A stretch of DNA of 64,000 nucleotides from a virus, in the IMG/VR virus record IMGVR_UViG_3300042988_000341, positions 1 through 64,000 of that record; one strand, written 5' to 3'. Position numbers and translations under genes: made by a program. The notes under the pieces are model-generated. The model saw only the letters and a program-made list of their open reading frames with translations. It was not told the origin of the DNA and searched no databases. The stretch's first letter is position 1; the number at the start of each line of letters is the position of its first letter. This document shows positions 2,146 through 62,698 of this stretch, piece by piece.

Positions 2146-2155
2146 AGATAGTTCC

Positions 2156-38978: not shown

Positions 38979-39980
38979 ATGACATATCAATCAGGCTCGT
39001 TAGGTAAAATACAAAAAGGAGATATTAATGGTTTCCTGAATACTAACACGCCCAACTTTAATGGATTATGGAGTACTGGTAGTGGAGATAGTGGCTATGG
39101 CCAGACAGCTATTTCTGCTGTAGCTACTGGTGACAAGATTAAGACCACTACTTGGAAGAACTTAATCGATTACATCACTAAGATGGCTAATCATCAGGGT
39201 AGTACTATTACTAGTATGAGTAACACCTTAGCTCCTACTGTTCCAGCTACTGGAAAAACTATTCGTATCATCGCTGATAATATCAACACGGTGATCACTA
39301 ACAATTTAACAACGTTAACTACCAACAGATTAAACTCCGCCGTACTTAATCGCAGTACTAACTCCACAACTAAAACGCATGGTAGCACTTGGAGTAATTC
39401 ATTAACTGCTACATTTACTATTACGTTTCCAAGTCATGATGCGGCAAGATATTATTTCAATGCCGGCGGGCAGATTGGCATTCAAGGCAGTCATCCTTAT
39501 GTTGCTGGCTATAATATTAACGGCCTAATTAGTGAAATTTGTAATGATATTGGTACGATATGGATGTCTAGTCCTACCAGCGGCACAGTTAGTATAGAAG
39601 GCAGTAACTGGCATGGCATCGAACAAAAATCCAGCACTGGAGCAGGCAGCTCGGTAAATATTAGTACTAACCATGGCTTCTATGCCTGGACCAACACTAG
39701 TACCCCGGTCATCACACAAAAGGGCTCCACTAGTTTTGTAGGTTCATGGACTGGTACAAACTACACATCAGGAACATATGGACAAGTATCAGTCAAGTAT
39801 GATGGTGCTGGCGTAGTTACAGTGACCTATCTACTAGACGAAGTGCCAGATGGTAGCGCCGCAGCTGCCAATACCTCGGTTACATTAATCCTTAAACAGC
39901 CAACTACCACCTATCTTACTAATAGTTGGGGTGTTATCGGCTCAACACTAACAGTATCTGGCTCAATCGCCGCCACATAA
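38979..39980 (+). CDS. virion fibre-like protein, paralog 3 of 3
   Basis: Same conserved blocks (SGYGQ, HQGS, ARYYFNAGGQIG, GTIWMSS). Confidence 0.7.
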   Translation: MTYQSGSLGKIQKGDINGFLNTNTPNFNGLWSTGSGDSGYGQTAISAVATGDKIKTTTWKNLIDYITKMANHQGSTITSMSNTLAPTVPATGKTIRIIADNINTVITNNLTTLTTNRLNSAVLNRSTNSTTKTHGSTWSNSLTATFTITFPSHDAARYYFNAGGQIGIQGSHPYVAGYNINGLISEICNDIGTIWMSSPTSGTVSIEGSNWHGIEQKSSTGAGSSVNISTNHGFYAWTNTSTPVITQKGSTSFVGSWTGTNYTSGTYGQVSVKYDGAGVVTVTYLLDEVPDGSAAAANTSVTLILKQPTTTYLTNSWGVIGSTLTVSGSIAAT

Positions 39981-40004
39981 AATTCTACTACTACAGTACA
40001 GCTT

Positions 40005-40011
40005 CTAAATA
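40005..40011 (+). promoter_or_regulatory. late promoter box heading the enzyme operon
   Basis: CTAAATA followed by RBS AGGAG and ATG 40027. Confidence 0.6.
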
Positions 40012-40026
40012 TCATAGGAGCAAATA

Positions 40027-40338
40027 ATGTCAACAAAAGTATTAGTAGATAACATCAAGCATAGATTTAATCATAATGAATCAAAGCTATACCTCAAAGA
40101 AAAATATACCAATAAACTAACTATAGCTCATAGTGGCGGTATGTTTGCAATTACACCACAGTTAATCTCATTTCTCCGTGAGCCTACCAATGATACTAAC
40201 TATGAAATCTTAATAGATATCTATGGTAATCCAGTGGAGGTAGATCGCCAGGAGTTATTAACATTGGCAGCACAGACCTACAGTGAGGTCATGTCCGAGT
40301 GGCACACTGAATATACTGAACTACAGGCAAAGAGATAA
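40027..40338 (+). CDS. hypothetical protein (first gene of enzyme operon)
   Basis: 103-aa ORF with RBS; stop overlaps next start. Confidence 0.7.
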   Translation: MSTKVLVDNIKHRFNHNESKLYLKEKYTNKLTIAHSGGMFAITPQLISFLREPTNDTNYEILIDIYGNPVEVDRQELLTLAAQTYSEVMSEWHTEYTELQAKR

Positions 40339-41144
40339 TGTCAGGATTAACCAGAGGTGTAGTAATCATAGCGCATAACACTATGAAGGACGACTACTAT
40401 CGTATGGCAGTCGCAGTCGCCCAACGTGTCCAGCGCTTCCTCAATCTACCCACAACTATTATCACAGACGAGACTACTCTGGCGTCACATGGCGCTGGGG
40501 ATTACAAGTTCGACCATACCATTGTGGTCGAACCCGATCGTAATAATCACCTTAAGAACGCAGTGTGGATCAATAAGAACAGATATCGAGTATATGACCT
40601 TACACCGTATGACGATACTTTAGTACTAGATACTGATTATATGATTAATAGCAGCAGACTCCTCCAAATTTTTGAACAACCCAGTGACTTCTGCTGTTAT
40701 CGTACCGCTAGATATATTGGCACAGGCAATGCTACCAATGAAATGATTGGTAAAAACTCCCACTCTACATACTGGGCAACAGTGATGCGATTTACCAGGA
40801 CAGAACGCACTAGAGACCTATTCGAAATGATTAAGTTGATACAGGAGAATTATGTATATTATGCTGAATTACATGGATTCCTACCGTATACCTATCGCAA
40901 TGATCATGCCCTAACAATCGCCCTCCACACGGTAAATGGACACATGGAGATAGCCACCGACTTTATTATTGGCGAGCTCCAACATATCGGCTCAGATGGT
41001 CTGGTAGAGCGAGTTGATGATACTACGTATAATATCAAGTGCGATATTAGTATTAGAGGCAGACTAAAGAAGTCAGTAATCACTGTTAAGGATCAAGATT
41101 TTCACATGCTGAATAAGGACAACTATATGAGTTTAATCGTATGA
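40338..41144 (+). CDS. GT-A fold glycosyltransferase (GT8-like)
   Basis: RGVVIIA N-terminal strand; YDLTPYDDTLVLDTDY DxD motif; YRND..L; C-terminal H.LNK. Confidence 0.7.
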   Translation: MSGLTRGVVIIAHNTMKDDYYRMAVAVAQRVQRFLNLPTTIITDETTLASHGAGDYKFDHTIVVEPDRNNHLKNAVWINKNRYRVYDLTPYDDTLVLDTDYMINSSRLLQIFEQPSDFCCYRTARYIGTGNATNEMIGKNSHSTYWATVMRFTRTERTRDLFEMIKLIQENYVYYAELHGFLPYTYRNDHALTIALHTVNGHMEIATDFIIGELQHIGSDGLVERVDDTTYNIKCDISIRGRLKKSVITVKDQDFHMLNKDNYMSLIV

Positions 41145-41944
41145 GCATCAAAGATACCCAAGGATACGTAATAATGGCAGTTAATACTACGCAAGTAGAT
41201 TATGTCCATCTAGCCACAGTTCTCCGTGATAGTATTCACCGAGTTATGCCAGCTGCCCTAGTATCTATTATTACCAATGTGGATATAGTAGATGATGGGT
41301 GGGACAAGATCATACCCATCGTGGATATGGATACGACTGATTGGAAATTAGCCAATGATTGGCAAGTATATGAATTATCTCCATACACTAGAACTATAAA
41401 ACTAGAAGCTGATATGTATATTCCTAGAGATATTACATACTGGTGGGATATTCTTAAAGATAGAGACCTCAATATTTGTACTACTATTAGAGATTACCGT
41501 GGAGTTATATCTAATGATAGGTCATATAGACGAACATTCGTGGACTCTGGTATACCTCAAACATATAACGCTATCACCTATTTTAAGAAGTCCCAATTGG
41601 CCAGTGAATTCTACGCAGCAGTCAAGAACATTTTTGAGAACTGGAGCGATTATCTACCACTGCTGAAATTCAGTACGGAAGTACGTGCCACTACCGATGT
41701 GGTATATGCTCTAGCATCTATGGTGGTCGGTGAGGAGAATACAACACTACCGTCATTCAAAGAATTCTCCATGGTTCATATGAAACGTGCTATTAACAAC
41801 TTAGAAACAGAAGTATGGCATGATGAGCTAGTATATGAGGTATATCCAGATACTATGAGAATAAACACGTATCCTCAGTTATACCCCGTACATTATCATA
41901 ACAAAGACTTTGCGTACAAGATTGTAGAGGAACTCAATGATTGA
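41141..41944 (+). CDS. GT-A fold glycosyltransferase paralog (ExD motif)
   Basis: YELSPYTRTIKLEADM aligns with previous gene; TDVVYALA; VHMK; HYHNK. Confidence 0.65.
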   Translation: MSIKDTQGYVIMAVNTTQVDYVHLATVLRDSIHRVMPAALVSIITNVDIVDDGWDKIIPIVDMDTTDWKLANDWQVYELSPYTRTIKLEADMYIPRDITYWWDILKDRDLNICTTIRDYRGVISNDRSYRRTFVDSGIPQTYNAITYFKKSQLASEFYAAVKNIFENWSDYLPLLKFSTEVRATTDVVYALASMVVGEENTTLPSFKEFSMVHMKRAINNLETEVWHDELVYEVYPDTMRINTYPQLYPVHYHNKDFAYKIVEELND

Positions 41945-42329
41945 TCTTAATAACTTAACGCCAGAACAACAGTTAGAGCTAGCCCAAGCATTACAGGTAG
42001 CTTTATCTACAATTCAGCCACTACCTCAACCAGAATACAGAGTATATTACAGCAGTGATGGTAAGGTGATCACCTATACCACCGAAGATTTACCCGGTGA
42101 CTATTTAGTAATTACTCTTGAAGATTACCAGCAAGCTAGGCATGATGCCGTAATCATAGGTGGTAAATTAATATATACGCATGTTCGCCGGCATGTAACT
42201 AAGTTAGTCAAAACTAAAAATAATACTCAAGGGTTTGCTGCTAGTAAATATGACATTAGTGTAGTCGCACAAGGTAGCTACCCAGATGTCAATCATTACC
42301 AAGTACAAGCCAATGAAATTAAACGATAA
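41937..42329 (+). CDS. hypothetical protein
   Basis: 130-aa ORF overlapping neighbours in the operon. Confidence 0.65.
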   Translation: MIDLNNLTPEQQLELAQALQVALSTIQPLPQPEYRVYYSSDGKVITYTTEDLPGDYLVITLEDYQQARHDAVIIGGKLIYTHVRRHVTKLVKTKNNTQGFAASKYDISVVAQGSYPDVNHYQVQANEIKR

Positions 42330-43251
42330 GACCCAGGAAGAAGTATTAGAAGTTATAGAGATAGATGAACTTGACATAGTATACCTATCATATGATGAAC
42401 CACAGAAAGAAGACTTCTGGATCAAACTAAAGAACATGGCTCCATGGGCTACTAGAGTAGATGGAGTTCGAGGTAGTGATGCTGCTCATAAGGCAGCTGC
42501 CGCCGCGTCCAATACTGAACGATTCATTCTAGTGGATGGTGACAATATGTTAGAAGAGCACTTCCTGGACGAGTGCCTAACTATCACCGCTAGTAATCGG
42601 GATGCTCAATTCCGTTGGCGGGCCAAGAACTGTATCAATGGCCTCCACTATGGCAATGGTGGCGTATCATGTTGGACCAGATCCTATATCAACAATATGC
42701 GTACTCACGAGGCCAGTGATCCCACTAATACTCGAACTAACATTGAGTTCTGCCTGGATCCTAATTATTGGCCTATGCATAACTGCTACTCTACCACCTA
42801 CCCTAACTATACTCCTCAACAGGCATGGAGAGCAGGATTCCGTGAAGGTGTAAAGATGTGTAATCGCGATGGTCCAATGCCTGCTAGCGCCAGCACCTTC
42901 CTCCAACATGTATGGCCAGGCAATCTCCAGAATCTCCACATATGGCAAACCATCGGGCGTGACGTAGAGAATGGTCAGTGGGCTATACTAGGAGCTAGAC
43001 TAGGCACACACTATCTAATGTTACGTGACTGGGACTATAGAGAAGTACAGGACTTTAGCTGCTTAGACCGACTATGGGAGCTACATAAGAATGATGATGA
43101 GCACGTAGCTCACGAGTTGATGCTAGACTTAAACAGGGCACTAGGCACTACGATAGTGGAGCTAGACGCAAGTGCCTCTAAATTCTTTAAAGATTACGTT
43201 AGTGTAAAATGGCGCAATACTGATATTATGAACAGAGAAACATATGAATGA
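42313..43251 (+). CDS. GT-A fold glycosyltransferase-like protein
   Basis: LDIVYLSYDEP, GVRGSDAAH, FILVDGD (DxD), NGLHYGNGG, AWRAGFREGVKM. Confidence 0.65.
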   Translation: MKLNDKTQEEVLEVIEIDELDIVYLSYDEPQKEDFWIKLKNMAPWATRVDGVRGSDAAHKAAAAASNTERFILVDGDNMLEEHFLDECLTITASNRDAQFRWRAKNCINGLHYGNGGVSCWTRSYINNMRTHEASDPTNTRTNIEFCLDPNYWPMHNCYSTTYPNYTPQQAWRAGFREGVKMCNRDGPMPASASTFLQHVWPGNLQNLHIWQTIGRDVENGQWAILGARLGTHYLMLRDWDYREVQDFSCLDRLWELHKNDDEHVAHELMLDLNRALGTTIVELDASASKFFKDYVSVKWRNTDIMNRETYE

Positions 43252-44818
43252 ACAACGAATAAATGTTAGTGATATTCACTGGTTCAGAACAGGAAACAAG
43301 TCTGATCATGGCCGAAATGTTGAGTCAATTAAGCAATTACTTGGTCAAGTTGGTCCAGGGTTCTGCTTAGCTAAGTTCAGCCAGGTCACTATGCATCTAG
43401 GTCAAGGTACAGTTCATAGTTGTCACCACCCTAGAGTTCATCATATACCACTAGAGGAACTCAAAGAATCCCCAGCAGCCCTGTTTAATAGCAGGTACCT
43501 ACAGGGATTAAGAACTGAGATGAAGGCAGGTGAACGTCCATCGGAGTGTGGATACTGCTGGAGAATTGAAGATGGTCAGGGTACTGGCACTAGTGATAGG
43601 TTCCTCAAAAGTATGACTGAATGGTCAGTACCACACTATGATATTGCTATTAATAGCACTGATACTACTATACACTATCCGTCCTATCTAGAGGTTGACT
43701 TTAGTAATGTCTGTAACTTTGAATGTATCTACTGTGGTCCAGAGTTCAGTAGTAAGTGGGTAGAGAACATCAATCGTCATGGTCCAGTTATTATGCTTAG
43801 AAATACTGATGGCTTGACTGGACAACAGGGATACAAGTCAGACTATGCTACTATGCACTACAAGAACAAGGATCATAACCCACATCTAGAGGCGTTCTGG
43901 CAATGGTGGCCAGAGATGGTCGGTCATCTCAGAGTATTCCGCATTACTGGTGGTGAGCCATTAATGAGTCGAGAAACATTTAAGATGATGGATTACTTTG
44001 CTGAGAACCCGCACCCAGATATAGAACTAAACATCAATAGTAATCTAGGCGTACCACAGAAACTATGGGATGAATTCATCTCTAAGGTGGAGAAGCTAGA
44101 TAGGAACAATCTAACGGTATATACCTCAGTGGACGCATGGGGCGCTAGAGCTGAATACATTCGAACTGGCTTAGACTTCCAGTTATTCCAACAACGATAT
44201 ATCCAGCTATGTGAATTGGGTATTAAAGTTAATACTATGTGTACATTTAACATTCTAAGTGTTACTAGTATCTTAGATTACCTTAAGTGGATAATTGAGA
44301 TGAAGCGTAGATTCAACTATAATGCGTACTATGCTGACTTAGAGCAGAAATTTGGCTTTAAGTGGTCAACTCAGGCTACAGTTAATAAACCAATTAAGGT
44401 AGGTATAGACATGCCGTATCTACGTCACCCACTACACTTAGACGTACTGGCCACAATCAACCAACAGTTAATTCAAGATTATTTAATCCCAGCATTCAAA
44501 TTTGTACAGGAGAATCAGAGTACCACGATTGTTACTGAGGATGGCACTGAACTAAGCTCCTGTACGGGGTTCGAAGCACATGAGGTAGCAATGTTTACTA
44601 GAATCGTTACTGACATCTTAGATAGATGGAGAACCAGAGATGGTGAACGTGTTAGACACGAACGAGCCAAGCTATTTGACTTCCTAACTGAGATCGACGA
44701 GCGCCAGGGCTCTAGCTTTAGAGATACATTCCCTGAGATGGAATCTCTATGGCAACGTTGCGAACTAGATATCGATAGTTATTATAACCCTGGTCCTCTA
44801 ACACTAACTAATATATGA
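43244..44818 (+). CDS. radical SAM enzyme with N-terminal twitch/SPASM domain
   Basis: CNFECIYC triad, TGGEP; N-terminal C...SCHH...CGYCW auxiliary cluster ligands. Confidence 0.9.
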   Translation: MNEQRINVSDIHWFRTGNKSDHGRNVESIKQLLGQVGPGFCLAKFSQVTMHLGQGTVHSCHHPRVHHIPLEELKESPAALFNSRYLQGLRTEMKAGERPSECGYCWRIEDGQGTGTSDRFLKSMTEWSVPHYDIAINSTDTTIHYPSYLEVDFSNVCNFECIYCGPEFSSKWVENINRHGPVIMLRNTDGLTGQQGYKSDYATMHYKNKDHNPHLEAFWQWWPEMVGHLRVFRITGGEPLMSRETFKMMDYFAENPHPDIELNINSNLGVPQKLWDEFISKVEKLDRNNLTVYTSVDAWGARAEYIRTGLDFQLFQQRYIQLCELGIKVNTMCTFNILSVTSILDYLKWIIEMKRRFNYNAYYADLEQKFGFKWSTQATVNKPIKVGIDMPYLRHPLHLDVLATINQQLIQDYLIPAFKFVQENQSTTIVTEDGTELSSCTGFEAHEVAMFTRIVTDILDRWRTRDGERVRHERAKLFDFLTEIDERQGSSFRDTFPEMESLWQRCELDIDSYYNPGPLTLTNI

Positions 44819-46116
44819 ATAATAATATGAATAATAATAAAACAATATGCGCGGTACCCTTTGTTAGTACCATGATTAACACTGATACTACAGTTAGATA
44901 CTGCTGTATGGTAGCTAAATGGACTAATAGCAGAGTCACCAAAGATGATGGCTCATCATATACATGTAGAGATAACTTTACTACTGATTCCTGGAATAGT
45001 CAGTATATGCGAAACTTACGAGTGTCTATGTTACGAGGTGAAACTATTACTGGCTGCGACACTTGTTACAAACAAGAGGAAGACGGCAGAACTAGTAATA
45101 GACAGCACAGTATCATGGAGTGGAATTGGCGCATAGGCGAGGACCAACTGCGCGACATCTTTAAACATGCTGAGGCCAACGATGGCCATCTCGATATGCC
45201 GCCGGTATACCTGGACCTACGACTAGGTAATCTGTGTAATCTTAAATGTCGTATGTGTAACCCGTGGAATAGTAGTCAAATTGTCAGAGAGCACAAGGAC
45301 AGCTTGGTTAATAACCCCGAATACATTCGAGTATGGGAGAAGACTTTTGGTAAATTCCCAGAGAAGGTTATGGATGAACAAGTATGGTTCGATGGTGATG
45401 TTCTATGGGATCAAGTAATATCATTAATCCCTGTACTAAAGAAAGTATACATGACTGGAGGCGAGCCTACCTTAATCAAAAACAACTTTAAGTTCATGGA
45501 AGAATGTATCAAACAAGGTAGAACAGACATTGCCCTGTTCTTTAACACTAACTGCACTAATATCAACAGACAGTTCTTAGGACTAATTAGTCAGTTCGAT
45601 GAAGTAAGTATCAACGCTAGTATGGATGGTATCGGTATAGTTAACGATTATATCCGCGCCCCTAGTAAGTGGGAACAAATCAGCACTAACATCGAGCGAT
45701 TGGCTGAACTACCAAACGTTAAACTGGGAGTTACTCCTACGATACAGGTGTATAATGTCTATAATATAGTGGCCATGATCAAATGGGTAGAGCATATTCG
45801 AACTAAGTACGAACGAGATATCTTTATTGACTTCCTCATCAACCAGCATCCACTACACCTGAACACCAATATATTGCCTCAACACATTAAAGATGAGGTT
45901 ATCGCGGAGGTGGTAGATTTCAAAGATAATCATATGGCTAATCATCATCCAATGACTATCAACAGTTTGACTGGACTAATAGGACATTTAAAAACGCCCA
46001 CTCCTCCTAATCATCAAGAGCAACTAGAGCGCTTCAAGGTATATACCAGGGCACTGGATACAGAACGTGGTCAATCATTGATTGATGTAGACGCAAGATT
46101 AACAGGATTATTATGA
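44815..46116 (+). CDS. radical SAM enzyme with N-terminal twitch/SPASM domain
   Basis: CNLKCRMC, TGGEP; N-terminal CAVPF...CC...CDTC. Confidence 0.9.
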   Translation: MNNNMNNNKTICAVPFVSTMINTDTTVRYCCMVAKWTNSRVTKDDGSSYTCRDNFTTDSWNSQYMRNLRVSMLRGETITGCDTCYKQEEDGRTSNRQHSIMEWNWRIGEDQLRDIFKHAEANDGHLDMPPVYLDLRLGNLCNLKCRMCNPWNSSQIVREHKDSLVNNPEYIRVWEKTFGKFPEKVMDEQVWFDGDVLWDQVISLIPVLKKVYMTGGEPTLIKNNFKFMEECIKQGRTDIALFFNTNCTNINRQFLGLISQFDEVSINASMDGIGIVNDYIRAPSKWEQISTNIERLAELPNVKLGVTPTIQVYNVYNIVAMIKWVEHIRTKYERDIFIDFLINQHPLHLNTNILPQHIKDEVIAEVVDFKDNHMANHHPMTINSLTGLIGHLKTPTPPNHQEQLERFKVYTRALDTERGQSLIDVDARLTGLL

Positions 46117-47378
46117 TTGACATTAATAAACTTTGTGTGCAGCCATGGATGCACCTAGCCAGCTTTAATAATGGCCAGGTGCCTCTATGTTGCGTTGCTC
46201 AACCAGAGCAAGGTATTAATTTAAATACCCAAACGCCGATCCAAATATGGAATAGCCAACAGTTTAAAACTGCTAGATTGCAGTTCTTAGCCGGTGAACA
46301 ACCACCACAATGTAGTGCTTGTTGGCGCGAAGAGGCGGCTGGAGTTAAAAGTCACCGCCAGATTGAGAATACAATGTGGTCGCGAATCCTGGGTCCAGAG
46401 TATCTACAAGAGTTAATTGCTAGTACTGGCGAAGATGGCACTCTTGATAGAAACCCAATTACCTTAGATTTGCGTATAGGTAATACCTGTAATCTACAGT
46501 GCGTTATGTGTAGGCCGCATGATAGTAGCAGATGGCTAGCTGATAGTCGGAAACTAGCCCAATCATTGACTAGTCCTGGTGCTCGTGGTGATTGGGAATA
46601 TAAGGCTACCAGTATCAAGTCAACTGATTGCTTTGACTGGTTCTCTAGACTAGAAACTCAGAATGCCCTGGGCGAATTCATGGGAGATATTCAGAGAATT
46701 GTCTTTGGCGGCGGCGAGCCACTAATGCTTAAAGAACACTTAGAGTTTATTACTAGACTGGTAGAGTCAGGTCACGCTGGGAACATTACCCTGGGCTATC
46801 ATACTAATGGCACTCAATTAACTGAACGATTCATTGAGTTATGGAGTCACTTTAAAGCAGTAGAGTTAATGATTAGTGTGGACGACTGGGGACAACGTAA
46901 CGACTACGTAAGATACCCTAGCAGTTGGTCAACTTTGCTAGCTAACCTAGACAGACTAGATAATACTGCTGACAATATTAAGGTTAATATCTTGGCTACA
47001 GTACATGCTATGAATATCTACAATCTACCTGAGTTCGCCCAGCAGGTCTTAGACCGAGGATGGTCCAAGATAGGTAGCAGAAATCACGGTCTGTTCTTTG
47101 TGGGCACCACCCACTGGCCTCAATATATGAGTACTCAAGTACTACCTGCCACAATTAAAGATCAGGTAGCTAGTCATTGGGCTAAATTTCCTGCTATAAT
47201 GGAGCATCCTCAGTGGCGGAACAGAATTCACCAACAACTAGAGTTCATGCTGAGTAGAGATGAGTCTAGTAGATTCCCGGACCTCGTTGATTATATCGAC
47301 CGTCTCGATGACATTAGGCCCATCAAGTTCAAGGATCTATACAGTGAATACTATCAACTCCTTCGAGGCACACAATGA
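46113..47378 (+). CDS. radical SAM enzyme with N-terminal twitch/SPASM domain
   Basis: CNLQCVMC, GGGEP; N-terminal CVQPW...CC...CSAC. Confidence 0.9.
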   Translation: MIDINKLCVQPWMHLASFNNGQVPLCCVAQPEQGINLNTQTPIQIWNSQQFKTARLQFLAGEQPPQCSACWREEAAGVKSHRQIENTMWSRILGPEYLQELIASTGEDGTLDRNPITLDLRIGNTCNLQCVMCRPHDSSRWLADSRKLAQSLTSPGARGDWEYKATSIKSTDCFDWFSRLETQNALGEFMGDIQRIVFGGGEPLMLKEHLEFITRLVESGHAGNITLGYHTNGTQLTERFIELWSHFKAVELMISVDDWGQRNDYVRYPSSWSTLLANLDRLDNTADNIKVNILATVHAMNIYNLPEFAQQVLDRGWSKIGSRNHGLFFVGTTHWPQYMSTQVLPATIKDQVASHWAKFPAIMEHPQWRNRIHQQLEFMLSRDESSRFPDLVDYIDRLDDIRPIKFKDLYSEYYQLLRGTQ

Positions 47379-48388
47379 AACACGAAATCGGCGAAAGTGA
47401 TATCATATTCATGAGTAAGACGGAGATATCTAAGCACACTGCTGAGTATCTACACTCCAATGGTCCTAACTCATGGAAGGACTGGTGGTGCAGCGCTGGA
47501 TTAAGGTCCCTGTACATCAGTCATGATGGGTTAATCTATAGAGGCACGTGTCAGGTAGACGGCGTGATTGGTAGTATCTATAACACCGGTAGTCCTAGAG
47601 CAGTAGAACTAAGTCAATGGGTTAAATGTACCGCGGATACATGTATGTGTGCTCCCGATATGAGAGCTCCTAAAGTAGTTAATATTGAAAATAGCAACAT
47701 TGTTGGCATGACCCATCAATATTTGCCTAAGGCGTACTGGGTTAATAACGCAGAAGTGGATCTGGTCAATGACCCATATGTTACATATAGCCAGGCCCAT
47801 GAGGAGTTTAAACTAGTCATATGGGAACTAGGTCGACGCTGTAACTATGATTGTTGGTATTGTGGTCCAGATGCCCATAATACATACGAGAGTCAAAAGA
47901 CCCTAGGTTCACTATTAGCGGCGGTCCGCCAACTACAGATTATATGGCTTAATAGTCAACCAGCCAAGTTTGTATTCGCTGGTGGCGAATCAACATTCAA
48001 CCCAGACTTCATGGAGTTTGCTAATCATCTACACAAGGACGGTCACAGAATTCATACAACTACCAATGGCAGTCATACCACCGCGTACTACACTGAACTA
48101 GCTAGGATATCTGATATCTCATTTAGCGCTCACCTCAGTTATCTTGAGACTCCAAACATCGCAAAGAAGTTTATAGCAAACGTAGCAGCAGCAACCATCA
48201 ACGCGGGATTAAACTATATCGAGGTCAGAATCATGCTCCAACCAGGTAAATTACTCCAGGCCCAGGAGCTCCATACTCGCTTAATAGAAGTTACTCCACG
48301 TGTTACAGTCGATCTCCTACATAACGAAACTAAGACTACCATTGAATATACCGCCCAAGAAGTCCAATGGGCTACCAGTCATCAATAA
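47375..48388 (+). CDS. radical SAM enzyme with N-terminal Cys-rich auxiliary domain
   Basis: CNYDCWYC, AGGES, TTNGS; N-terminal CSAG...GTC...C...CMC. Confidence 0.85.
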   Translation: MKHEIGESDIIFMSKTEISKHTAEYLHSNGPNSWKDWWCSAGLRSLYISHDGLIYRGTCQVDGVIGSIYNTGSPRAVELSQWVKCTADTCMCAPDMRAPKVVNIENSNIVGMTHQYLPKAYWVNNAEVDLVNDPYVTYSQAHEEFKLVIWELGRRCNYDCWYCGPDAHNTYESQKTLGSLLAAVRQLQIIWLNSQPAKFVFAGGESTFNPDFMEFANHLHKDGHRIHTTTNGSHTTAYYTELARISDISFSAHLSYLETPNIAKKFIANVAAATINAGLNYIEVRIMLQPGKLLQAQELHTRLIEVTPRVTVDLLHNETKTTIEYTAQEVQWATSHQ

Positions 48389-48390
48389 CT

Positions 48391-48495
48391 ATGCTTAAAA
48401 CACTAGCTAATCTCCTGTACTATGGCCCACTACTATGGTACAAACAACGCAAGAAACTCAAAGAGCTCCGTCGTCAAGACCCATTTACCTATTAA
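48391..48495 (+). CDS. unannotated 34-aa basic peptide ending DPFTY
   Basis: MLKTLANLLYYGPLLWYKQRKKLKELRRQDPFTY*; exactly fills the gap with 2-nt spacing (TAACTATG) on both sides. Confidence 0.7.
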   Translation: MLKTLANLLYYGPLLWYKQRKKLKELRRQDPFTY

Positions 48496-48497
48496 CT

Positions 48498-49259
48498 ATG
48501 AATACAATCATTATTAACGCCCATACCAGAACAGGCAGCGAACTTCTACTAGCTATTCTTCGTAGTCGAGGGTACTATACACTAGGTGAAATTGTTACTA
48601 ACTCGGTGCCACAATCATTCATCACTAATCACAGGCGGGACCCCAACTTCGAACACGAATACTTTGAACAGTTTAATCGTGGACTAAGATATCTACTTAA
48701 CGATACTAATGCGCCTAATAAGGTAGTTAAAGTAATGATCAACCATCGCCATGCTATTAGGCCATATATCTACCAATATGCTACCAGTCAAATACTACTA
48801 CATCGTCAGGATATGTTTGCTAGTCAGATTAGTCATGGAGTAGCTATGGCCAGTGGCCAATGGATTAAATGGGGCTCAAATCAACCATTGGAGTGGAAGT
48901 CATTGGCTACTCCATTCACTGGCACGTTAGATGCCCAGAACTTCGAGCAACGTCTCCAGTGGAGAATCTCGGACTATGAAGAATTACTTGAATCGACACC
49001 ACCGTATACCAGAGTAGTTATGTACGATGAACTAGTAGAATATGCCCGGGCTAAGCCCCACTCTCTATATACTATACCAACTGATCCACCAGTGATTAGT
49101 AATATCGAGGAGCTCCAGGACATATATTACAGGTATCTGCCTAGAGTCGAGGCTATTAATGGACGAATCACAGCAATCAAAACCTCTGCATGCAATAGTT
49201 TAGATAGTACAGATAGTACAGATACCACGTTCGCCCAATACTTAGATAGCCTATGTTAA
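48498..49259 (+). CDS. Stf0-like sulfotransferase
   Basis: 5'-PSB loop HTRTGSELL, GE, and 3'-PB-like LHRQDMFASQISHGVA..SGQW; start reassigned to ATG 48498. Confidence 0.7.
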   Translation: MNTIIINAHTRTGSELLLAILRSRGYYTLGEIVTNSVPQSFITNHRRDPNFEHEYFEQFNRGLRYLLNDTNAPNKVVKVMINHRHAIRPYIYQYATSQILLHRQDMFASQISHGVAMASGQWIKWGSNQPLEWKSLATPFTGTLDAQNFEQRLQWRISDYEELLESTPPYTRVVMYDELVEYARAKPHSLYTIPTDPPVISNIEELQDIYYRYLPRVEAINGRITAIKTSACNSLDSTDSTDTTFAQYLDSLC

Positions 49260-50011
49260 CCACCAGATACCATCAAACAGACTCCGAGGAGCTGCTGGCC
49301 TACAATATGGAGCATCAGCCCGCTAGCTGGCGCTGGCATAAGGAGACGTTTGACTATACCTTTAACAGTCGTGGGTGGAGAATGAATAAGGAGATCGAGG
49401 ACGTTGATTATTCTAACTATCTCCTGTTCCTAGGGTGTAGCTATACTGTGGGCATTGGGCTGCCAGTAGAAGAAACATTCCCCGCAATTATTGCCCAGCA
49501 GACTGGCAGGGACTATATTAATGCTGCCCAAGGTGGCACCAGTACCTATTACTCATGGCATACATGTATTGACCTTATCGCCACCCTGCCAGGGGCACCT
49601 GGTGCCATTGTTATTAACTGGCCAGCTCTCCACCGCAATATGTATTGGCAGGCTAACGGTCAGCCTGTCCATTGTAGTCCACGTTTGATGAATAATGTGC
49701 CCGCCGAGTTTAAAACAGGGTTCACTAGTCACTGGATGAATGAGACTGACCTGGTCAATAAATTTAATAAGGCCAGGCTGAGTCTCCAGCTGTTATGCGC
49801 GGCCAAGAATATTCCACTATGGGATTTCACTCAATTTGATACTCCTGTACAGCAGCAGACTGGTGTGCCGCTGATCATGGCCGATACTGGCAGTAGTGAC
49901 TCTAATGGTCGGTGGGCCAGAGATATTCAGCGTGGTAGTCAGTGGACCGCGCATCTTGGTCCCGACCATCACCAGTACGTGGCCAATCGATTCCTCGCGA
50001 ACTTTTCATAA
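49253..50011 (+). CDS. SGNH/GDSL-like hydrolase or acyltransferase
   Basis: Block I-like FLGCSYTVGIG, block II-like INAAQGGTS, C-terminal HLGPDHH. Confidence 0.6.
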   Translation: MLTTRYHQTDSEELLAYNMEHQPASWRWHKETFDYTFNSRGWRMNKEIEDVDYSNYLLFLGCSYTVGIGLPVEETFPAIIAQQTGRDYINAAQGGTSTYYSWHTCIDLIATLPGAPGAIVINWPALHRNMYWQANGQPVHCSPRLMNNVPAEFKTGFTSHWMNETDLVNKFNKARLSLQLLCAAKNIPLWDFTQFDTPVQQQTGVPLIMADTGSSDSNGRWARDIQRGSQWTAHLGPDHHQYVANRFLANFS

Positions 50012-50113
50012 CTTTATTTTTCTACTTACTCGTCCCAACTGCGTTGCAAATACTTTTTAGTGGTGGACGGCTAAAATAGCTAATAATCGCCTAATTAACG
50101 GTATTTTTCACTG

Positions 50114-50121
50114 AATAAATA
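50114..50121 (+). promoter_or_regulatory. late promoter box
   Basis: AATAAATA upstream of the carbamoyltransferase. Confidence 0.55.
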
Positions 50122-50139
50122 TAAAGAACTTTATCTACT

Positions 50140-51603
50140 ATGAACTACATTGGAATATCTTGTGGCTACCATGATGCTGCTATTACCGTTATTGACGGTA
50201 CTGGTAATATAGTGTATGCTGGTCATGCTGAGCGGTATGGTGGTGGTAAACATACTCCACACTTGAATAGTGGCATTATTAATGCTGCTATGGCTAGTAT
50301 CAATACTAGTACTGATAGTTATAGTCTACATTATTATGAGCGTCCACTAGTTAAATGGTTACGCAGATGGTGGGCTGGTGAGAGGCCATCGTGGAGGAGT
50401 ATAGATATAGGTAGTATTATTGGTACGCAGAATATGGCTCTACTTGGTTATGATAGTAGGAAGATTAATACTTATAATCATCATCTTAGTCATGCGGCTG
50501 CTGGCTTCCAAACTAGTCCATATATGGATGCTACTGTGGTTATTATTGATGCTATTGGTGAGTTTGAATGTGTTACTATATGGAAGGCAGGGTGGGATGA
50601 TGGTAGGGCAAAATATACGAGATTGTATACTAGATATTATCCGAATTCGATCGGACTCTTTTATACTGGAATTACTAGAAGGTGTGGCCTACGCCCATTA
50701 GACGAGGAGTATATCTTAATGGGTATGGCTGCCTATGGTGTTCCTAGATATGTTGAGGAGATGAGGCGGTTATTAGATATGAATTTACATCGTGGTTGTG
50801 ATTGGTTCTTGCCTGATGCTGATATCTATGACTTGGCTGCTAGTGCACAGGTGCTGGTGGAGGAGCTAATAGTGGAGGTGGTGGAGATTGCTAAAAAAAT
50901 TGGAGCTAGCTCCAATTTAGTATACGGTGGTGGTCTAGCATTAAACTGTAGGGCGAATAGATTGCTGGGTGATTATTATTCTAATGTATGGATTATGCCT
51001 AATCCTGGTGATGCTGGTAGTAGTTTAGGCGCGGCCGCTCTAGGTTATGGTGGCCGAATTAAGTTTAATAATTGCTATTTGGGCACTAATATTAGTGGAC
51101 AGTATCCGGTTACGGAGTTGTTGGAGGAGTTATTATCTACTGGTATAGTTGGAGTAGCATCAGGTAGGGCGGAGTTTGGTCCACGAGCCTTGGGTAATAG
51201 AAGTTTATTAGCTGACCCTAGAGGTAAGGATATTCGAACTAGGGTGAATAATATTAAACAACGCCAGCAATTTAGACCATTTGCTCCTGTTATCTTAGAG
51301 GAGCATGCCGATATGTACTTTGATCTGGTACCGGGTGTTAATAGTCAATATATGCAGGTAGTGGCTAGATGTAGAGTGCCAGAATTATTCCCTGCTATTG
51401 TTCATTATGATGGTACCAGTAGAGTTCAAACAGTAGCGGCAGATGGTTCTGGCATCCGACTATTATTGGAGGCATGGTACGAGAGGACAGGTTGCCCTAT
51501 GTTATTAAATACCTCGCTGAATATTCGAGGTAGGCCTATGGTTAATACCCAGGAGGATGCTGCTCAGTTTGAGGCTGAATATGGTGTTCGGGTATTAAGT
51601 TAA
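50140..51603 (+). CDS. NodU/CmcH/TobZ-family O-carbamoyltransferase
   Basis: GYHDAA, HHLSHAA, DAIGE, GGLALNC, PGDAGSSLGAA, EFGPRALGNRSLLADPR, FRPFAP, LLNTSLN. Confidence 0.95.
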   Translation: MNYIGISCGYHDAAITVIDGTGNIVYAGHAERYGGGKHTPHLNSGIINAAMASINTSTDSYSLHYYERPLVKWLRRWWAGERPSWRSIDIGSIIGTQNMALLGYDSRKINTYNHHLSHAAAGFQTSPYMDATVVIIDAIGEFECVTIWKAGWDDGRAKYTRLYTRYYPNSIGLFYTGITRRCGLRPLDEEYILMGMAAYGVPRYVEEMRRLLDMNLHRGCDWFLPDADIYDLAASAQVLVEELIVEVVEIAKKIGASSNLVYGGGLALNCRANRLLGDYYSNVWIMPNPGDAGSSLGAAALGYGGRIKFNNCYLGTNISGQYPVTELLEELLSTGIVGVASGRAEFGPRALGNRSLLADPRGKDIRTRVNNIKQRQQFRPFAPVILEEHADMYFDLVPGVNSQYMQVVARCRVPELFPAIVHYDGTSRVQTVAADGSGIRLLLEAWYERTGCPMLLNTSLNIRGRPMVNTQEDAAQFEAEYGVRVLS

Positions 51604-52172
51604 ACGCCGCATACTACTAGATGAATACGCTCCTCTAGCCCGCCATTATATACCCAGTGAACTTCCCTAGTATCTAATTCATACCAATGATTATCTAGTG
51701 GAAGATGATAACAGCTAGCGGTAGTAGGTAGTTCACTTCTGTCTAGGTTCATATCAGTGGTAGCATGTGCTACCTGTGCTCCTGGATTAGTTTTTAATAC
51801 TAGATGATATCTGACCTCGGCGTCCTTATGTACACTTAGGCCAGTTTTAGGTGGTAATCTCATAAATCTAATTCTACCTAGCCTAATATCAAGATGTTCT
51901 TGTAACTCCTCAATACAACGGCGAACTGTCCAGGTATTATCAATATTCCACTGGGTGAAGTCTACCTCGTGCGCTCTGTAACCACCAATACTTGATGAAT
52001 ATAAACTACCAGTGCCGTCTCTCCAGCAATCTATACTGGTTGGTTGAGAATTTAATGCTAGTTGATTCATGTCCTGCCATACATCAGCTAGTATTTTATT
52101 ATCTAATAGTTGCTGTAAATCAGCTAGTACAGCCTGGGCAGGCGCGGTTAAATTTAATTTTTTAAGAAACAT
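51600..52172 (-). CDS. Asp/Asn beta-hydroxylase-like Fe(II)/2OG dioxygenase, copy A
   Basis: RIRFMRL...LSVHKD...RYHLVL...HWVYNGG..ERIHLV (HxD...H triad plus 2OG-binding Arg). Confidence 0.8.
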   Translation of the reverse strand: MFLKKLNLTAPAQAVLADLQQLLDNKILADVWQDMNQLALNSQPTSIDCWRDGTGSLYSSSIGGYRAHEVDFTQWNIDNTWTVRRCIEELQEHLDIRLGRIRFMRLPPKTGLSVHKDAEVRYHLVLKTNPGAQVAHATTDMNLDRSELPTTASCYHLPLDNHWYELDTREVHWVYNGGLEERIHLVVCGV

Positions 52173-52814
52173 TTATTTTCTCCAAATTGCCATGTATCTA
52201 GTATATTCAGCAGTAACGAATTCACCAGTATAATAGGGAGCTTCCACCCTATTCTGAACTAGGAAGTCGCTAATATCAGTGGAGCACCTAATATGCTCCT
52301 CGCACTCAAAGTAGTTGTTGCCCTGTACTACAATTAAGGTACCAGTTGGAATATTATCCAACCAGGTATCATAAGTTGCCTGTAGAACATGCTCAGTGGA
52401 AGTATTAATTACGATATCTGGTCTAATATCAGATTGGTATTGATAGGTAGCCATATCTGCGGTCACCGCCTTAAATCGCCAATCGTCCATCTCGTGAATT
52501 TTATTTACTTGATCTGCTATAGGCTCACACCAGGAATCTAAGTCAATACTGCGTATCTTCCTAACATTAATATCAGATTGAATTATCATATTAGCTAGAA
52601 TTCCTATCCACCCACCAAAGATATAGATATTTTGAGGAGCGCCCGCCATAACATACTCACTGAGATGATTAACCAACCAACCCTTAGATGCTAATTGACC
52701 CCACCATAAGGCATCTAATGCCCTAGTACGCTCCTGGTGACTGTCAATATTACGAATAGCATTCATCCATTGAGCTATCTCTAAATTACTGATCTTAAAC
52801 TCTGATTTATTCAT
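52173..52814 (-). CDS. class I SAM-dependent methyltransferase-like protein
   Basis: IYIFGGWIG motif I, SIDLD acidic motif II, TADM, VINTSTEH. Confidence 0.7.
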   Translation of the reverse strand: MNKSEFKISNLEIAQWMNAIRNIDSHQERTRALDALWWGQLASKGWLVNHLSEYVMAGAPQNIYIFGGWIGILANMIIQSDINVRKIRSIDLDSWCEPIADQVNKIHEMDDWRFKAVTADMATYQYQSDIRPDIVINTSTEHVLQATYDTWLDNIPTGTLIVVQGNNYFECEEHIRCSTDISDFLVQNRVEAPYYTGEFVTAEYTRYMAIWRK

Positions 52815-52819
52815 GGAGG

Positions 52820-52838
52820 TATTTATATGGTGTAAATA
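52820..52838. promoter_or_regulatory. divergent late promoter pair
   Basis: TATAAATA on minus (52820-52827) and TGTAAATA on plus (52831-52838), each 5 nt from its ATG. Confidence 0.75.
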
Positions 52839-52843
52839 ACTCT

Positions 52844-54325
52844 ATGATAGAAGATGATGAAGACTACTGGGAAATTCCTGATAATATCGATAGGAGTTCG
52901 TTTGATTTTACTTGGCGTCCTGACCTCTATGAGCCTCCGTATATTCATCAATTCCCTATTAAATCTAATATAGATGGCGGTCCAAGATATATTGCTGCTG
53001 GCGCAACCGATATTAAATATCATACCGAGCCGATTGCTACTATTATTCCAGACTGGAGTAAATGGTGGATACCGGACACCATCGATCGGAATTCATTTGA
53101 TTTTACATGGGAGCCCGATATCTACGAGCCTCCATATATTCATCAATTCCCTACTAAATGGGCCAATGATGCTGGCCCTAGATACATAGCTACTGGCGCT
53201 ACTGATTTTAAATATCACGATGAACCAGTAGCTGATATTAATATTGACTGGAGTAAATGGTGGATACCGGACAATATTGATTGTAGTAATTTTGATTTTA
53301 CATGGGTGCCAGGAAAAACTGATAGGCCATACATATATCAATTCGGTACCCAACATCAAAAGACAGGCGGACCTAGATATATTCAACCAGGTAGCAGAAG
53401 ATTTAAATATGAATCGTCTCAACACGCAATTAAATTACCAGATACTGATAATTGGGTAGTACATCCTGATCTAGAAGTTATTGACTTTGATTGGAGCTGG
53501 CACCCAGACAGTACTGACAGCATTTATAACTATGTTTTTGGCACAAGAGATATACCTCCACAGGAAATAAATTTAATTACCTACAAGATGGCTACCGGAG
53601 CACCTAGTAAATATTCAGATATTATGGCCAACGCTAGATGGCAGGATCTAGATATTATATTCGTTAGTAATGGTGAGGTCGGCGAACAGCAACGATATGA
53701 TAGATTGTGCGAGGTGGCTGGCAGAGAAGTTAAATGGGTACGAGGCGTTAATGGCAGAGAGAATGCCCTTAGCGCGGCAGCCCAATTATCCACTACCCAA
53801 TGGTTTATCTTATTCCCTGGTAAATTATGGGCAGATGCGGCGTTTGATTTTAATTTCCAACCCAATCGAACATATGAGCCTAAGCATTATATTTTTTATG
53901 CCAAGAACCCATTAAATGGATTGGAATATGGGCATCAGGCAGCAGTATGTTATAATCGACAATTAGTATTAGAGACTATCAACTACGGCCTCGACTTTAC
54001 CATGAGTAAATTACACGATATTGTGCCAGTATTAAGTGGAGTAGCCCAATATAACAGTAGTGTTATTATGACCTGGCGCACGGCATTCCGTGAGGTGATT
54101 AAATTACTACATGCTGGTGATGCTGAGAGCGCCGCCAGATTAGAAGTTTGGCGAACAGTGGCAGACGGAGAGAATGCTGAGTGGAGTATAGCAGGCGCTA
54201 ATGATGCGTTGGATTATTATACGGAAGTATCGGGTGATATATCAAAACTCATGGACACATTTAGTTGGCAGTGGTTGGAAGAATATTTTAACAGCAAATA
54301 TTCATTAACAACCGCAGACCACTAG
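52844..54325 (+). CDS. protein with ~4 N-terminal 65-aa Trp/Pro-rich repeats fused to a GT-A-like domain lacking DxD
   Basis: Repeats W.IPD.ID..FDFTW.P....PYIHQF...GPRY; C-domain aligns with 42313 ORF (LDIIFVS, NPLNGLEYG, WRTAFREVIKL). Confidence 0.7.
   Translation: MIEDDEDYWEIPDNIDRSSFDFTWRPDLYEPPYIHQFPIKSNIDGGPRYIAAGATDIKYHTEPIATIIPDWSKWWIPDTIDRNSFDFTWEPDIYEPPYIHQFPTKWANDAGPRYIATGATDFKYHDEPVADINIDWSKWWIPDNIDCSNFDFTWVPGKTDRPYIYQFGTQHQKTGGPRYIQPGSRRFKYESSQHAIKLPDTDNWVVHPDLEVIDFDWSWHPDSTDSIYNYVFGTRDIPPQEINLITYKMATGAPSKYSDIMANARWQDLDIIFVSNGEVGEQQRYDRLCEVAGREVKWVRGVNGRENALSAAAQLSTTQWFILFPGKLWADAAFDFNFQPNRTYEPKHYIFYAKNPLNGLEYGHQAAVCYNRQLVLETINYGLDFTMSKLHDIVPVLSGVAQYNSSVIMTWRTAFREVIKLLHAGDAESAARLEVWRTVADGENAEWSIAGANDALDYYTEVSGDISKLMDTFSWQWLEEYFNSKYSLTTADH
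52868..53540 (+). repeat. 195-nt-period coding tandem repeat
   Basis: GACTGGAGTAAATGGTGGATACCGGACA exact at 53051 and 53246; degenerate third and fourth units. Confidence 0.85.
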
Positions 54326-54883
54326 ATGAATTCTCTCCTGCTCACCGCCGTTATATACCCAATGAGGTTCTCTAGCGTCTAATTCGTACCAGTGATTATC
54401 TTGTGGTATATGATAGCATTGTGCTACCGATGGTAGTTCAATATCACTGTCAGTAGTTACATGATGGGCGAATACAACTGCTGGATTAGTTTTTAATACT
54501 AGATGATACCGTAATTCATAATCTCGATGAACACTAAGGCCAGTTCTGGGCAATAATCTCATAAACCTAATTCTACCCAGTTCAATGCCCAGAGTATCTC
54601 TAAGTAACTCAAGCTGCTGTCTGACATACCACGACTGATCGATATTCCATCGAGTAAAGTCATTCTCATTGAATAGATAAACATCATTCTTATAGTCGTA
54701 TTTACTGCCGATACAGTCCTGCCATGGATCAATACTATCTGGGCGACTAGTCAAACCTACCTGATTCCTCATATGCCAGATATTGTCGTTCTCTGACCAC
54801 GCTGTTTGTGTCTCCAATATAGTGATTAAATCATTATTAATTCTGTTGCTATCACTTGTTATATCTAGCTTCTTTAAGAACAT
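54305..54883 (-). CDS. Asp/Asn beta-hydroxylase-like Fe(II)/2OG dioxygenase, copy B
   Basis: Close paralog of 51600-52172 (MFLKKL start; LGRIRFMRL; SVHRD; HWVYNGGEQERIHLVVCG). Confidence 0.8.
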   Translation of the reverse strand: MFLKKLDITSDSNRINNDLITILETQTAWSENDNIWHMRNQVGLTSRPDSIDPWQDCIGSKYDYKNDVYLFNENDFTRWNIDQSWYVRQQLELLRDTLGIELGRIRFMRLLPRTGLSVHRDYELRYHLVLKTNPAVVFAHHVTTDSDIELPSVAQCYHIPQDNHWYELDAREPHWVYNGGEQERIHLVVCGC

Positions 54884-54903
54884 TTAGTGGTTACTCCTGT
54901 CGT

Positions 54904-54936
54904 TATTTAGTTGTTCAAAATCTCTTTGTCTAAATA
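54904..54936. promoter_or_regulatory. divergent late promoter pair
   Basis: CTAAATA on minus (54904-54910) and CTAAATA on plus (54930-54936). Confidence 0.6.
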
Positions 54937-62692: not shown

Positions 62693-62698
62693 AAAAAT

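Follow-up and report, generated by a model that had tools for sequence, protein, structure and literature searches.

The DNA analyzed here is the first 64 kb (the window) of an 88,577-bp virus record, IMG/VR IMGVR_UViG_3300042988_000341; counts given for the record cover its full 88.6 kb. The source is an uncultured giant freshwater phage. CheckV estimated the record to be approximately 25% complete, which implies a genome of approximately 350 kb. The sequence is present in freshwater metagenomes (positions 39000-48900 are contained in three freshwater DNA runs, two of which may be the source sample, and in no listed RNA run), and no near-identical phage DNA was found among 50,697 phage records. 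Our subject is a cluster of genes at 40027-54883 that encodes glycosyltransferase (GT)-like proteins together with radical S-adenosylmethionine (SAM) enzymes and other modifying enzymes. The cluster consists of two parts, a core of fixed gene order that stays attached to genes on its fibre side and a cassette of enzymes that differs among relatives, and we interpret it as a late module of a jumbo myovirus.

Gene layout and promoter boxes

Between 40027 and 54883 lie 16 tightly packed open reading frames (ORFs) of at least 100 amino acids (aa), 13 on the + strand and three on the - strand. An ORF of 34 aa at 48391-48495 is the seventeenth, in agreement with the approximately 17 genes counted in an initial annotation of this DNA. 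Apart from the radical SAM, carbamoyltransferase and AspH-like proteins, the cluster has nine ORFs without any Pfam match, even at E <= 10. None of the cluster proteins contains a membrane-like segment (the highest 19-residue Kyte-Doolittle mean was 1.50), and no flippase, polymerase or ligase was noticed among them in family searches.

Each transcription unit of the cluster begins behind a TAAATA box, located 5-20 nt ahead of the starts at 40027, 50140, 52814 (-), 52844 and 54883 (-):

40005-40011 (+): CTAAATA box, 15 nt ahead of the first cluster gene
50114-50121 (+): AATAAATA box, 18 nt ahead of the carbamoyltransferase gene
52820-52827 (-): TATAAATA box, 5 nt before the start of the gene at 52173-52814
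5 nt upstream of 52844 (+): GTAAATA box, preceding the gene for a repeat-bearing GT-A paralog
54904-54910 (-): CTAAATA box, 20 nt upstream of the second AspH-like gene

The baseplate and giant-protein genes are preceded by GATAAATA. Throughout the window, 12 of the 43 genes have TAAATA no more than 55 nt upstream; 0.8 were expected from the genome-wide rate. In a comparison with T4-type late promoters we found one perfect TATAAATA and enrichment of TAAATA before genes. Sigma70-like sites were at chance level (58, versus 49.8 +/- 7.0 in shuffled sequences), and none was at the start of a cluster unit. These counts confirm two earlier observations, that every unit starts at a box like those of the baseplate genes and that sigma70 promoters are missing from these starts. 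Divergent ATAAATA boxes on both strands also occur at 2229-2246, between the genes at 1222-2211 (-) and 2268-3596 (+), and the back-to-back boxes at 52820-52838 inside the cluster resemble them.

Genes of the core and the cassette

The core comprises a fibA-type protein (three copies), two small proteins, two GT8-like GTs and a further enzyme of GT-A fold:

37017-37964, 37990-38967 and 38979-39980 (+): fibA family, three Ser/Thr-rich paralogs of 315-333 aa, 37-45% mutually identical
40027-40338 (+): s103, a conserved 103-aa protein
40338-41144 (+): GT8a, a GT8-like retaining protein of GT-A fold
41141-41944 (+): GT8b, a paralog of GT8a
41937-42329 (+): s130, a conserved 130-aa protein
42286-43251 (+): enzyme of the GT-A (nucleotide-diphospho-sugar) fold, hereafter the GT-A enzyme

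The fold of GT8a was recognized from its predicted structure. The AlphaFold2 model, built on a 32-row alignment, had a predicted local distance difference test (pLDDT) score of 93.9 and matched glycogenin, LgtC, GlyE and the catalytic domain of UGGT in Foldseek (E 2e-6 to 2e-5). The match to glycogenin-2 had an E value of 2.1e-6 and a probability of 1.00, and there were 339 PDB matches at E <= 1e-3. The DxD motif of GT8a is D98-x-D100; among the 32 sequences D98 is at least 90% conserved and D100 is invariant. Because the sequence had no Pfam match at E <= 10, and thus none to PF01501, we file GT8a as having a GT8-like fold and not as a family member; Atlas gave GT8 and Nucleotid_trans clusters as feature-level leads only (0.95-0.96). 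GT8b is related to GT8a with a BLASTP E value of 1e-4 and has E-x-D at the DxD position, with D100 invariant in the alignment.

The GT-A enzyme is encoded by the most conserved gene of the cluster. Its start is uncertain, as public copies begin at residue 10. In the model (pLDDT 89.5) the fold spans residues ~23-175 and contains a DGD motif (D84 and D86 at least 90% conserved), followed by a helical C-terminal domain. Its best Foldseek match was the PBCV-1 capsid glycosyltransferase A64R (E 1.3e-3). In VIA every top row was a GT-A or NTP-transferase fold, the first being B4GALNT1 (Z 9.2, root-mean-square deviation 3.1, 140 residues aligned). These scores are middling and so do not tell glycosyl transfer from nucleotidyl transfer. 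NTP_transferase (PF00483) had no match in the record, and sequence searches of the GT-like families against the PDB returned chance-level rows only. Relatives of the GT-A enzyme are encoded on more than 599 IMG/VR stretches; 7999 of 8000 metagenome candidates scored at E <= 1e-3, the top 120 being 61-80% identical. We found no family match for s103, which is possibly a chaperone or adaptor.

The remaining genes of the cluster are as follows:

43244-44818, 44815-46116 and 46113-47378 (+): three tandem N-terminal-twitch (N_Twi) radical SAM enzymes; NF033640 scores of 282, 353.5 and 356.8 bits
47375-48388 (+): rSAM4, a radical SAM protein of another type; PF04055 42.9 bits, NF033640 only 26.5 bits (non-member)
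48391-48495 (+): 34-aa micropeptide ORF; the N-terminus is hydrophobic, followed by a basic stretch and the terminal sequence ...DPFTY
48435-49259 (+): protein initially labelled a sulfotransferase; two close homologues only, with an invariant N-terminal R-T-G-x-x-L-L
49253-50011 (+): protein initially labelled SGNH-like
50140-51603 (+): accessory O-carbamoyltransferase of the NodU/CmcH type; PF16861 167.2 bits, PF02543 105.4 bits
51600-52172 (-): accessory AspH-like 2-oxoglutarate/Fe(II) cupin, copy 1; PF05118 29.8 bits
52173-52814 (-): possible protein of the class I methyltransferase fold
52844-54325 (+): repeat-bearing GT-A paralog, with a C-terminal half homologous to the GT-A enzyme (E 2e-11)
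54305-54883 (-): AspH-like 2-oxoglutarate/Fe(II) cupin, copy 2; PF05118 36.8 bits

The cut-offs used were 170 bits for NF033640, 29.5 for PF04055, 22.6 for PF05118, 24 for PF02543, 27 for PF16861 and 1000 for the NodU equivalog NF041651. The four radical SAM proteins scored 28.0, 32.8, 43.3 and 42.9 bits with PF04055, the first falling just below the cut-off, and the record encodes no radical SAM protein beyond these four. The three N_Twi enzymes belong to NF033640, with whole-protein scores above its cut-off. Their CX3CX2C motif (C126, C130, C133) and N-terminal C27, C67 and C70 are all invariant in the alignment, and the enzyme at 46113-47378 has a Pfam SPASM match at its N-terminal residues 8-71. 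rSAM4 also has a Cys-rich region N-terminal to its core. The solved structures nearest to the N_Twi enzymes, over the core only, are SkfB (E 5e-7) and MoaA, and the weaker NCBIfam rows are mostly peptide maturases.

The 34-aa ORF fits exactly after rSAM4, so the next gene probably starts at 48498 and not at 48435. This small ORF is flanked on both sides by TAACTATG junctions, and the clusters of the relatives L087 (at 8645) and L136 (at 16104) also encode peptides, ending in ...DPFIY.

Not all of the functions first assigned to these genes withstood the searches. Those of the four radical SAM enzymes (by PF04055, and three of them also by NF033640) and of the two AspH-like dioxygenases did. 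The AspH-like copies are 55% identical to each other, and both contain HKD/HRD and a distal IHL, which we read as probable iron ligands (His-x-Asp ... His). The carbamoyltransferase contains both domains of its family but scored only 127 bits against the 1000-bit cut-off of the NodU equivalog. Assignment of 52173-52814 as a methyltransferase drew weak evidence from one of 44 homologues, which matches PF13847 at 3e-4; the best PDB row was spermidine synthase at a chance-level E of 1.2. In the consensus of this family, the strand that comes after a glycine-rich GWYG motif is followed by an acidic residue.

The label of Stf0-like sulfotransferase for 48435-49259 found no backing in Pfam (E <= 10), NCBIfam or PDB searches by phmmer or profile. 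The Stf0 family itself (PF09037) had no match in the record, and none in 14 control genomes. Only the R-T-G-x-x-L-L sequence may resemble the 3'-phosphoadenosine-5'-phosphosulfate (PAPS) loop. Likewise, 49253-50011 had no Pfam, NCBIfam or PDB match (the PDB rows were at chance level), and SGNH/GDSL (PF13472) was absent from the record though found in 11 of the 14 control genomes, which leaves the SGNH label unsupported. PF19547 matched neither the record nor any control genome. A possible link to SGNH through the DUF6071/GDSL-like protein of a relative (BLASTP E 0.046, 17% identity over 133 residues) was not used. The proposed parallel with Nod factors loses ground with these labels, since the NodH-like part is unsupported, the NodS-like part is weak and the NodU-like protein falls short of the equivalog. 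Nor did we find backing for comparison of the radical SAM enzymes with BtrN and NeoN, as the closest solved relatives of the three N_Twi enzymes are MoaA and the peptide-modifying SkfB.

Four GT-A-like proteins had been counted initially, and we recovered all four, two by structural model and two by paralogy; a conserved DxD is present in three, but not in the repeat-bearing paralog. In that protein PGK aligns at the DGD position, and its C-terminal GT-A domain is possibly non-catalytic or metal-independent. Its N-terminal part (52844-53440) consists of three tandem 65-aa repeats, starting at residues 9, 74 and 139, with the pattern W-x-IPD-x-ID...FDFTW-x-P...PYI-x-QF...GPRYI. The repeats may form an acceptor-binding module. 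In relatives this protein has 750-877 aa.

Conservation in relatives, bacteria and other phages

We compared the cluster with the 80 best IMG/VR loci, using the gene of the GT-A enzyme as anchor. fibA was present in 78 of these loci, s103 in 79, both GT8-like genes in all 80 and N_Twi genes in 73-75. In every locus with all five genes (76/76), fibA, s103, GT8a, GT8b and the GT-A gene followed one another in this order on one strand within 7 kb. s103 always lay between fibA and the first GT8-like gene. s130 belongs to a cluster of 70 proteins from 69 of the 80 loci, and its gene invariably separates GT8b from the GT-A gene. A reciprocal set of 80 loci was anchored on fibA; 18 of them had too little downstream DNA. 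Among the 62 that could be evaluated, 61 contained s103, 60 contained each GT gene and 56 contained N_Twi genes. The two sets partly overlap and represent a single clade, so the counts are of non-independent events.

The same gene order is found in the cultured Ralstonia phage RsoM2USA (ORF355 to ORF347, with ORF355 the counterpart of fibA), most core genes being 27-38% identical in amino acid sequence. Just upstream of its core, ORF356, 359 and 361 are virion proteins by mass spectrometry, according to the authors who described that phage. The far flank of the cluster differs between the two phages and the fibre side is kept. RsoM2USA also has a carbamoyltransferase gene, whose product is 42.8% identical to that of 50140-51603, and a second N_Twi gene; both are approximately 95 kb from its core. 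The suggestion that the cluster might keep its link to structural genes in relatives was thus borne out: the core stays attached to fibre-side genes in all 76 evaluable relatives and in RsoM2USA.

The rest of the cluster is variable. The relatives encode 289 N_Twi proteins in 75 of the 80 loci, their genes interspersed with other types of radical SAM genes, GDSL/DUF6071-like genes and unknown families. Several genes of the phage studied here are accessory and occur in few relatives: the carbamoyltransferase (5/80), the AspH pair (copy 1 in 1/80), the SGNH-labelled gene (5/80) and one radical SAM gene. The possible methyltransferase has homologues in the relatives L003 and L004, in RsoM2USA (ORF347) and in four bacterial-labelled loci, and lies in the flank of 5 of the 80 viral loci. 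Ten of the 80 relatives have a nucleoside diphosphate (NDP)-sugar epimerase/dehydratase inside the cluster, and four have a nucleotidyltransferase-like fusion. A gene of the former kind is also present in this phage, just past the end of the window at 64000:

63954-64925 of the record (+): NAD-dependent NDP-sugar epimerase/dehydratase, PF01370 E 8.8e-46

It is likely that this epimerase supplies a modified nucleotide sugar.

Upstream of the cluster we identified a gene for the baseplate wedge (phrog_10646, E 2.5e-260) and one for the baseplate hub (phrog_13211, E 9.5e-44), as well as genes for a 205-aa protein and two proteins of ~640 aa. The C-terminus of the 642-aa protein matches a tail-fibre PHROG (E 5e-5); a PDB sequence search gave chance-level rows only. 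The cluster had been described as lying directly after tail-fibre genes. The baseplate genes and the one tail-fibre-like C-terminus agree with this, but the immediate upstream neighbours are the three fibA genes, which have no Pfam or PHROG match and no annotated relative. We regard the fibA family as a candidate acceptor or fibre component. A trimer prediction for 37017-37964 scored 0.00 (mark 0.42) and counts neither way.

The region from the baseplate wedge gene to the fibre genes includes a single ORF of 6076 aa at 14071-32301 (+). Its counterpart in RsoM2USA is ORF361 (>288 kDa, detected in virions), with which only short stretches align, at 20-36% identity. Beyond the other end of the cluster, a minus-strand DUF7487 gene lies between genes for a MoxR-like AAA ATPase (56224-57336) and for a DUF2201 metallopeptidase/VWA-like protein (58257-59546); in the relative L003, homologues of the MoxR-like and DUF2201 genes are inverted and adjoin the cluster. 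Genes for dihydrofolate reductase (DHFR), a T5orf172/GIY-YIG-like putative homing endonuclease (61974-62669) and thymidylate synthase follow in a row at 61516-63610.

N_Twi genes are not limited to phages. We scanned one genome per prokaryote species for N_Twi relatives and found 79 loci (24-46% identity), approximately 59 of them from Bdellovibrionota by record titles. In 76 of the loci there were 194 N_Twi proteins, encoded in tandem arrays of two to seven genes, mainly in metagenome-assembled genomes of Bdellovibrionota. One 1.9-Mb chromosome (L023) has seven N_Twi genes in tandem, and several genomes have more than one such locus. Homologues of rSAM4 adjoin the arrays in 24 of the 79 loci, the carbamoyltransferase is present in eight, and weak relatives of the protein at 49253-50011 (E 1.3e-5) are also encoded beside bacterial arrays. 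Other recurrent neighbours are GT2 enzymes, a class V aminotransferase, GDSL-like proteins, a B12-radical SAM enzyme and housekeeping genes.

Vibrio phage K566 (record positions 152217-183239) has five N_Twi-like genes, without the GT core and far from its structural genes; their neighbours include genes for nicotinamide phosphoribosyltransferase, a PagP-like protein and ribonucleotide reductase. The occurrence in bacteria and in K566 indicates that the radical SAM/carbamoyltransferase sub-module is older and wider than its link to fibre genes. Genes of the phage GT core (32-51% identity) also occur on four contigs, L027, L036, L072 and L085, that were binned as Neisseriaceae, Gammaproteobacteria, Legionellales and Verrucomicrobia and are probably phage DNA grouped with bacteria.

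Possible products and comparison with known systems

We suggest that the cluster most likely builds an edited sugar decoration, and that this decoration is probably on the virus particle. To the specific proposal that a tailored glycan is assembled in the cytoplasm on a virion protein, we assign a probability of roughly 0.45. From the folds and families, gene order, promoter boxes and solubility described above, we infer a glycan product, its acceptor, the timing of its synthesis and its purpose as follows. Late in infection, the soluble GTs would use host or phage nucleotide sugars to make a short glycan in the cytoplasm. The acceptor would be a virion protein, most likely a member of the adjacent fibA family or the fibres. 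The cassette enzymes would then modify these sugars through radical chemistry, O-carbamoylation and hydroxylation, perhaps also through methylation, and exchange of cassettes between relatives would vary the decoration.

A glycan is favoured because the constant core contains a trio of DxD-bearing GT-fold proteins, because relatives have nucleotide-sugar enzymes and because GT2 genes adjoin the bacterial arrays. A cytoplasmic, virion-linked acceptor is favoured because the proteins are soluble, no export or lipid-carrier enzyme is present, the boxes are of the late type and the core is locked to fibA. The top structural neighbours of the GT-A-like cluster proteins include GT8 enzymes that glycosylate proteins (glycogenin, GlyE, UGGT and Skp1 galactosyltransferase) as well as PBCV-1 A64R. 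The initial annotation had likewise proposed a glycan on virion proteins. The GT-fold and tailoring enzymes, the baseplate-like boxes, the fibre-side synteny and the epimerases are consistent with that proposal, but several of the parts it named are only accessory.

Several observations weigh against a decorated virion protein. The place of fibA in the virion is suggested by gene position only. In the proteomics of RsoM2USA, which covered the most abundant gel bands only, ORF355 is not listed. The conserved order was found within one clade and may partly reflect shared descent. SkfB, which among solved structures is closest to the N_Twi enzymes, is a thioether synthase that modifies a peptide and not a sugar. 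The N_Twi arrays of Bdellovibrionota are without fibA or GT8 genes, and these arrays, together with K566 and the second locus of RsoM2USA, place N_Twi genes away from fibre genes, which indicates that the cassette chemistry is independent of a phage fibre. GT8 enzymes of lipopolysaccharide (LPS) cores are also soluble, so the absence of membrane segments is compatible with a lipid-linked acceptor. Finally, composition explains most of the N-X-S/T sequons in the fibre proteins. Only the protein at 33110-35038 is mildly enriched (24 sequons, versus 15.7 +/- 3.4 in shuffles; 24 was reached in 10 of 500 shuffles), and we rejected sequon enrichment as support, since composition accounts for most of it. 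Collagen-like G-X-Y runs, considered as a hydroxylase or GT target, were found in no window protein.

A further point against a virion acceptor is that a fibre-linked host recognition cluster (HRC) in pelagimyophages and cyanomyophages has been read in print as modifying the host (PMC7029224), an alternative that the initial annotation did not consider. In the present phage, the enzymes might similarly alter the LPS core, O-chain or capsule of the host cell and block superinfection, or re-adsorption of progeny to lysing cells; we consider this less likely than a virion glycan, though still a live alternative. Among the structural matches, LgtC-type GT8 enzymes act on lipooligosaccharide without membrane segments, bacterial N_Twi loci carry GT2 and GDSL genes, and the latent period of RsoM2USA, at 270 min, is long. 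However, an initiating phosphoglycosyltransferase, flippase, polymerase, ligase or acyl carrier function was not found in the cluster, and each unit lies behind a late-type box in an operon-like run with structural genes. The core is fixed beside one fibre-side protein in relatives that may well infect different hosts, and cultured pelagi- and cyanomyophages have no detectable homologue of the GTs.

We think it less likely still that the enzymes modify amino acids of a structural protein directly, by epimerization, cross-linking, hydroxylation or carbamoylation, or make a free metabolite. AspH-family (PF05118) enzymes hydroxylate protein residues, and the cluster has a pair of such proteins and a conserved micropeptide within the cassette. 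The relationship to SkfB and the peptide maturases among the NCBIfam rows point the same way, as does the radical SAM/carbamoyltransferase sub-module without a GT core in Bdellovibrionota and K566. Set against this, no part of the module is more constant than the three GT-fold enzymes, relatives repeatedly carry NDP-sugar enzymes and GT2 genes adjoin the bacterial arrays. We also detected no Cys-rich or repeat precursor-like peptide and no recognition element for peptides that are made by ribosomes and modified after translation (RiPPs) in the cluster, and s103 contains no cysteine.

The weakest of the alternatives, and one we hold to be very improbable, is post-replicative hypermodification of DNA, in which a modified base would be glycosylated and carbamoylated. 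Phages are well known to encode glycosyltransferases that decorate DNA, reportedly from work including that of Pyle et al. in 2024. Soluble enzymes would suit a DNA substrate, and the thymidylate synthase/DHFR block lies within 10 kb. However, the 88.6 kb of the record, approximately 25% of the genome, contain a single gene of the thymidylate synthase family. It lies beside DHFR and has kept PCH and PFN motifs, which we take to be typical of dUMP-specific ThyA. In the cluster we detected neither a kinase nor a DNA-binding or base-flipping domain, and its place is within the structural late block and away from replication genes, tied to a fibre-side protein.

With a virion glycan as the preferred reading, the N_Twi arrays might be a swappable glycan-editing cassette that uses novel radical chemistry on sugars, diversifies the decoration of adhesive fibres and is shared by a very large clade of aquatic jumbo phages and predatory Bdellovibrionota. 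Phages and Bdellovibrionota alike must recognize and attach to other bacteria, and Bdellovibrio uses phage-fibre-like adhesins. We offer this only as a speculation and think it improbable as a whole.

To our knowledge, mycobacteriophages are so far the only phages with documented glycosylation of the virion, and their enzyme sets are far simpler. Mycobacteriophage GTs encoded near structural genes are said to decorate virion proteins in the cytoplasm (Freeman et al., in 2023), with glycans reportedly found on the C-termini of capsid and tail-tube proteins in siphoviruses of Actinobacteria. We know of no radical SAM, carbamoyl or oxygenase tailoring in those phages. Chloroviruses and mimiviruses use soluble enzymes of their own to put unusual glycans on structural proteins, and in VIA the GT-A enzyme matched A64R (PDB 2p6w, Z 7.8) and Mimivirus R655 (PDB 9crz, Z 6.8). 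The likeness is limited to the general GT-A fold, at 10-16% identity over 129-145 aligned residues, and those viruses are eukaryotic giant viruses without radical SAM arrays.

The closest parallel in position and content is the HRC, a hypervariable, fibre-joined cluster described in 2020 by Zaragoza-Solas et al. (PMC7029224). In the T4-like aquatic myophages of that paper, GT8-type GTs and exchangeable radical SAM cassettes lie beside the tail-fibre genes, and an Asp/Asn beta-hydroxylase is a core gene; carbamoyltransferases are also present in these phages. The authors' reading, modification of the host O-chain, is, like ours, drawn from genes alone. In contrast to position and content, orthology of the GTs does not extend to the HRC: a tblastn search with the GT genes against the 50,697 phage records returned RsoM2USA only. 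The present cluster further differs in its strictly ordered six-gene core and its arrays of one radical SAM family, NF033640. Moraphages have four core groups of putative glycosyltransferases, and the available part of their description mentions no radical SAM or carbamoyltransferase genes (PMC12619734). A radical SAM gene of cyanophage S-SCSM2R was read as "antibiotic synthesis" (PMC12801897), which is unhelpful here.

NF033640 is a catalogued family without a known reaction or solved structure, and our literature search found no paper on it. In our literature searches, a strict six-gene core, radical SAM arrays of a single family and their sharing with Bdellovibrionota were not found in print. 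Should a virion glycan be the product, freshwater jumbo phages of a very common group would build and chemically edit their own surface sugars. The cluster offers a route to a first function for NF033640, whose genes occur in arrays of two to seven, and with RsoM2USA the core can be tested in culture. The layout of fixed core and variable cassette suggests a mechanism for rapid change in host recognition or shielding.

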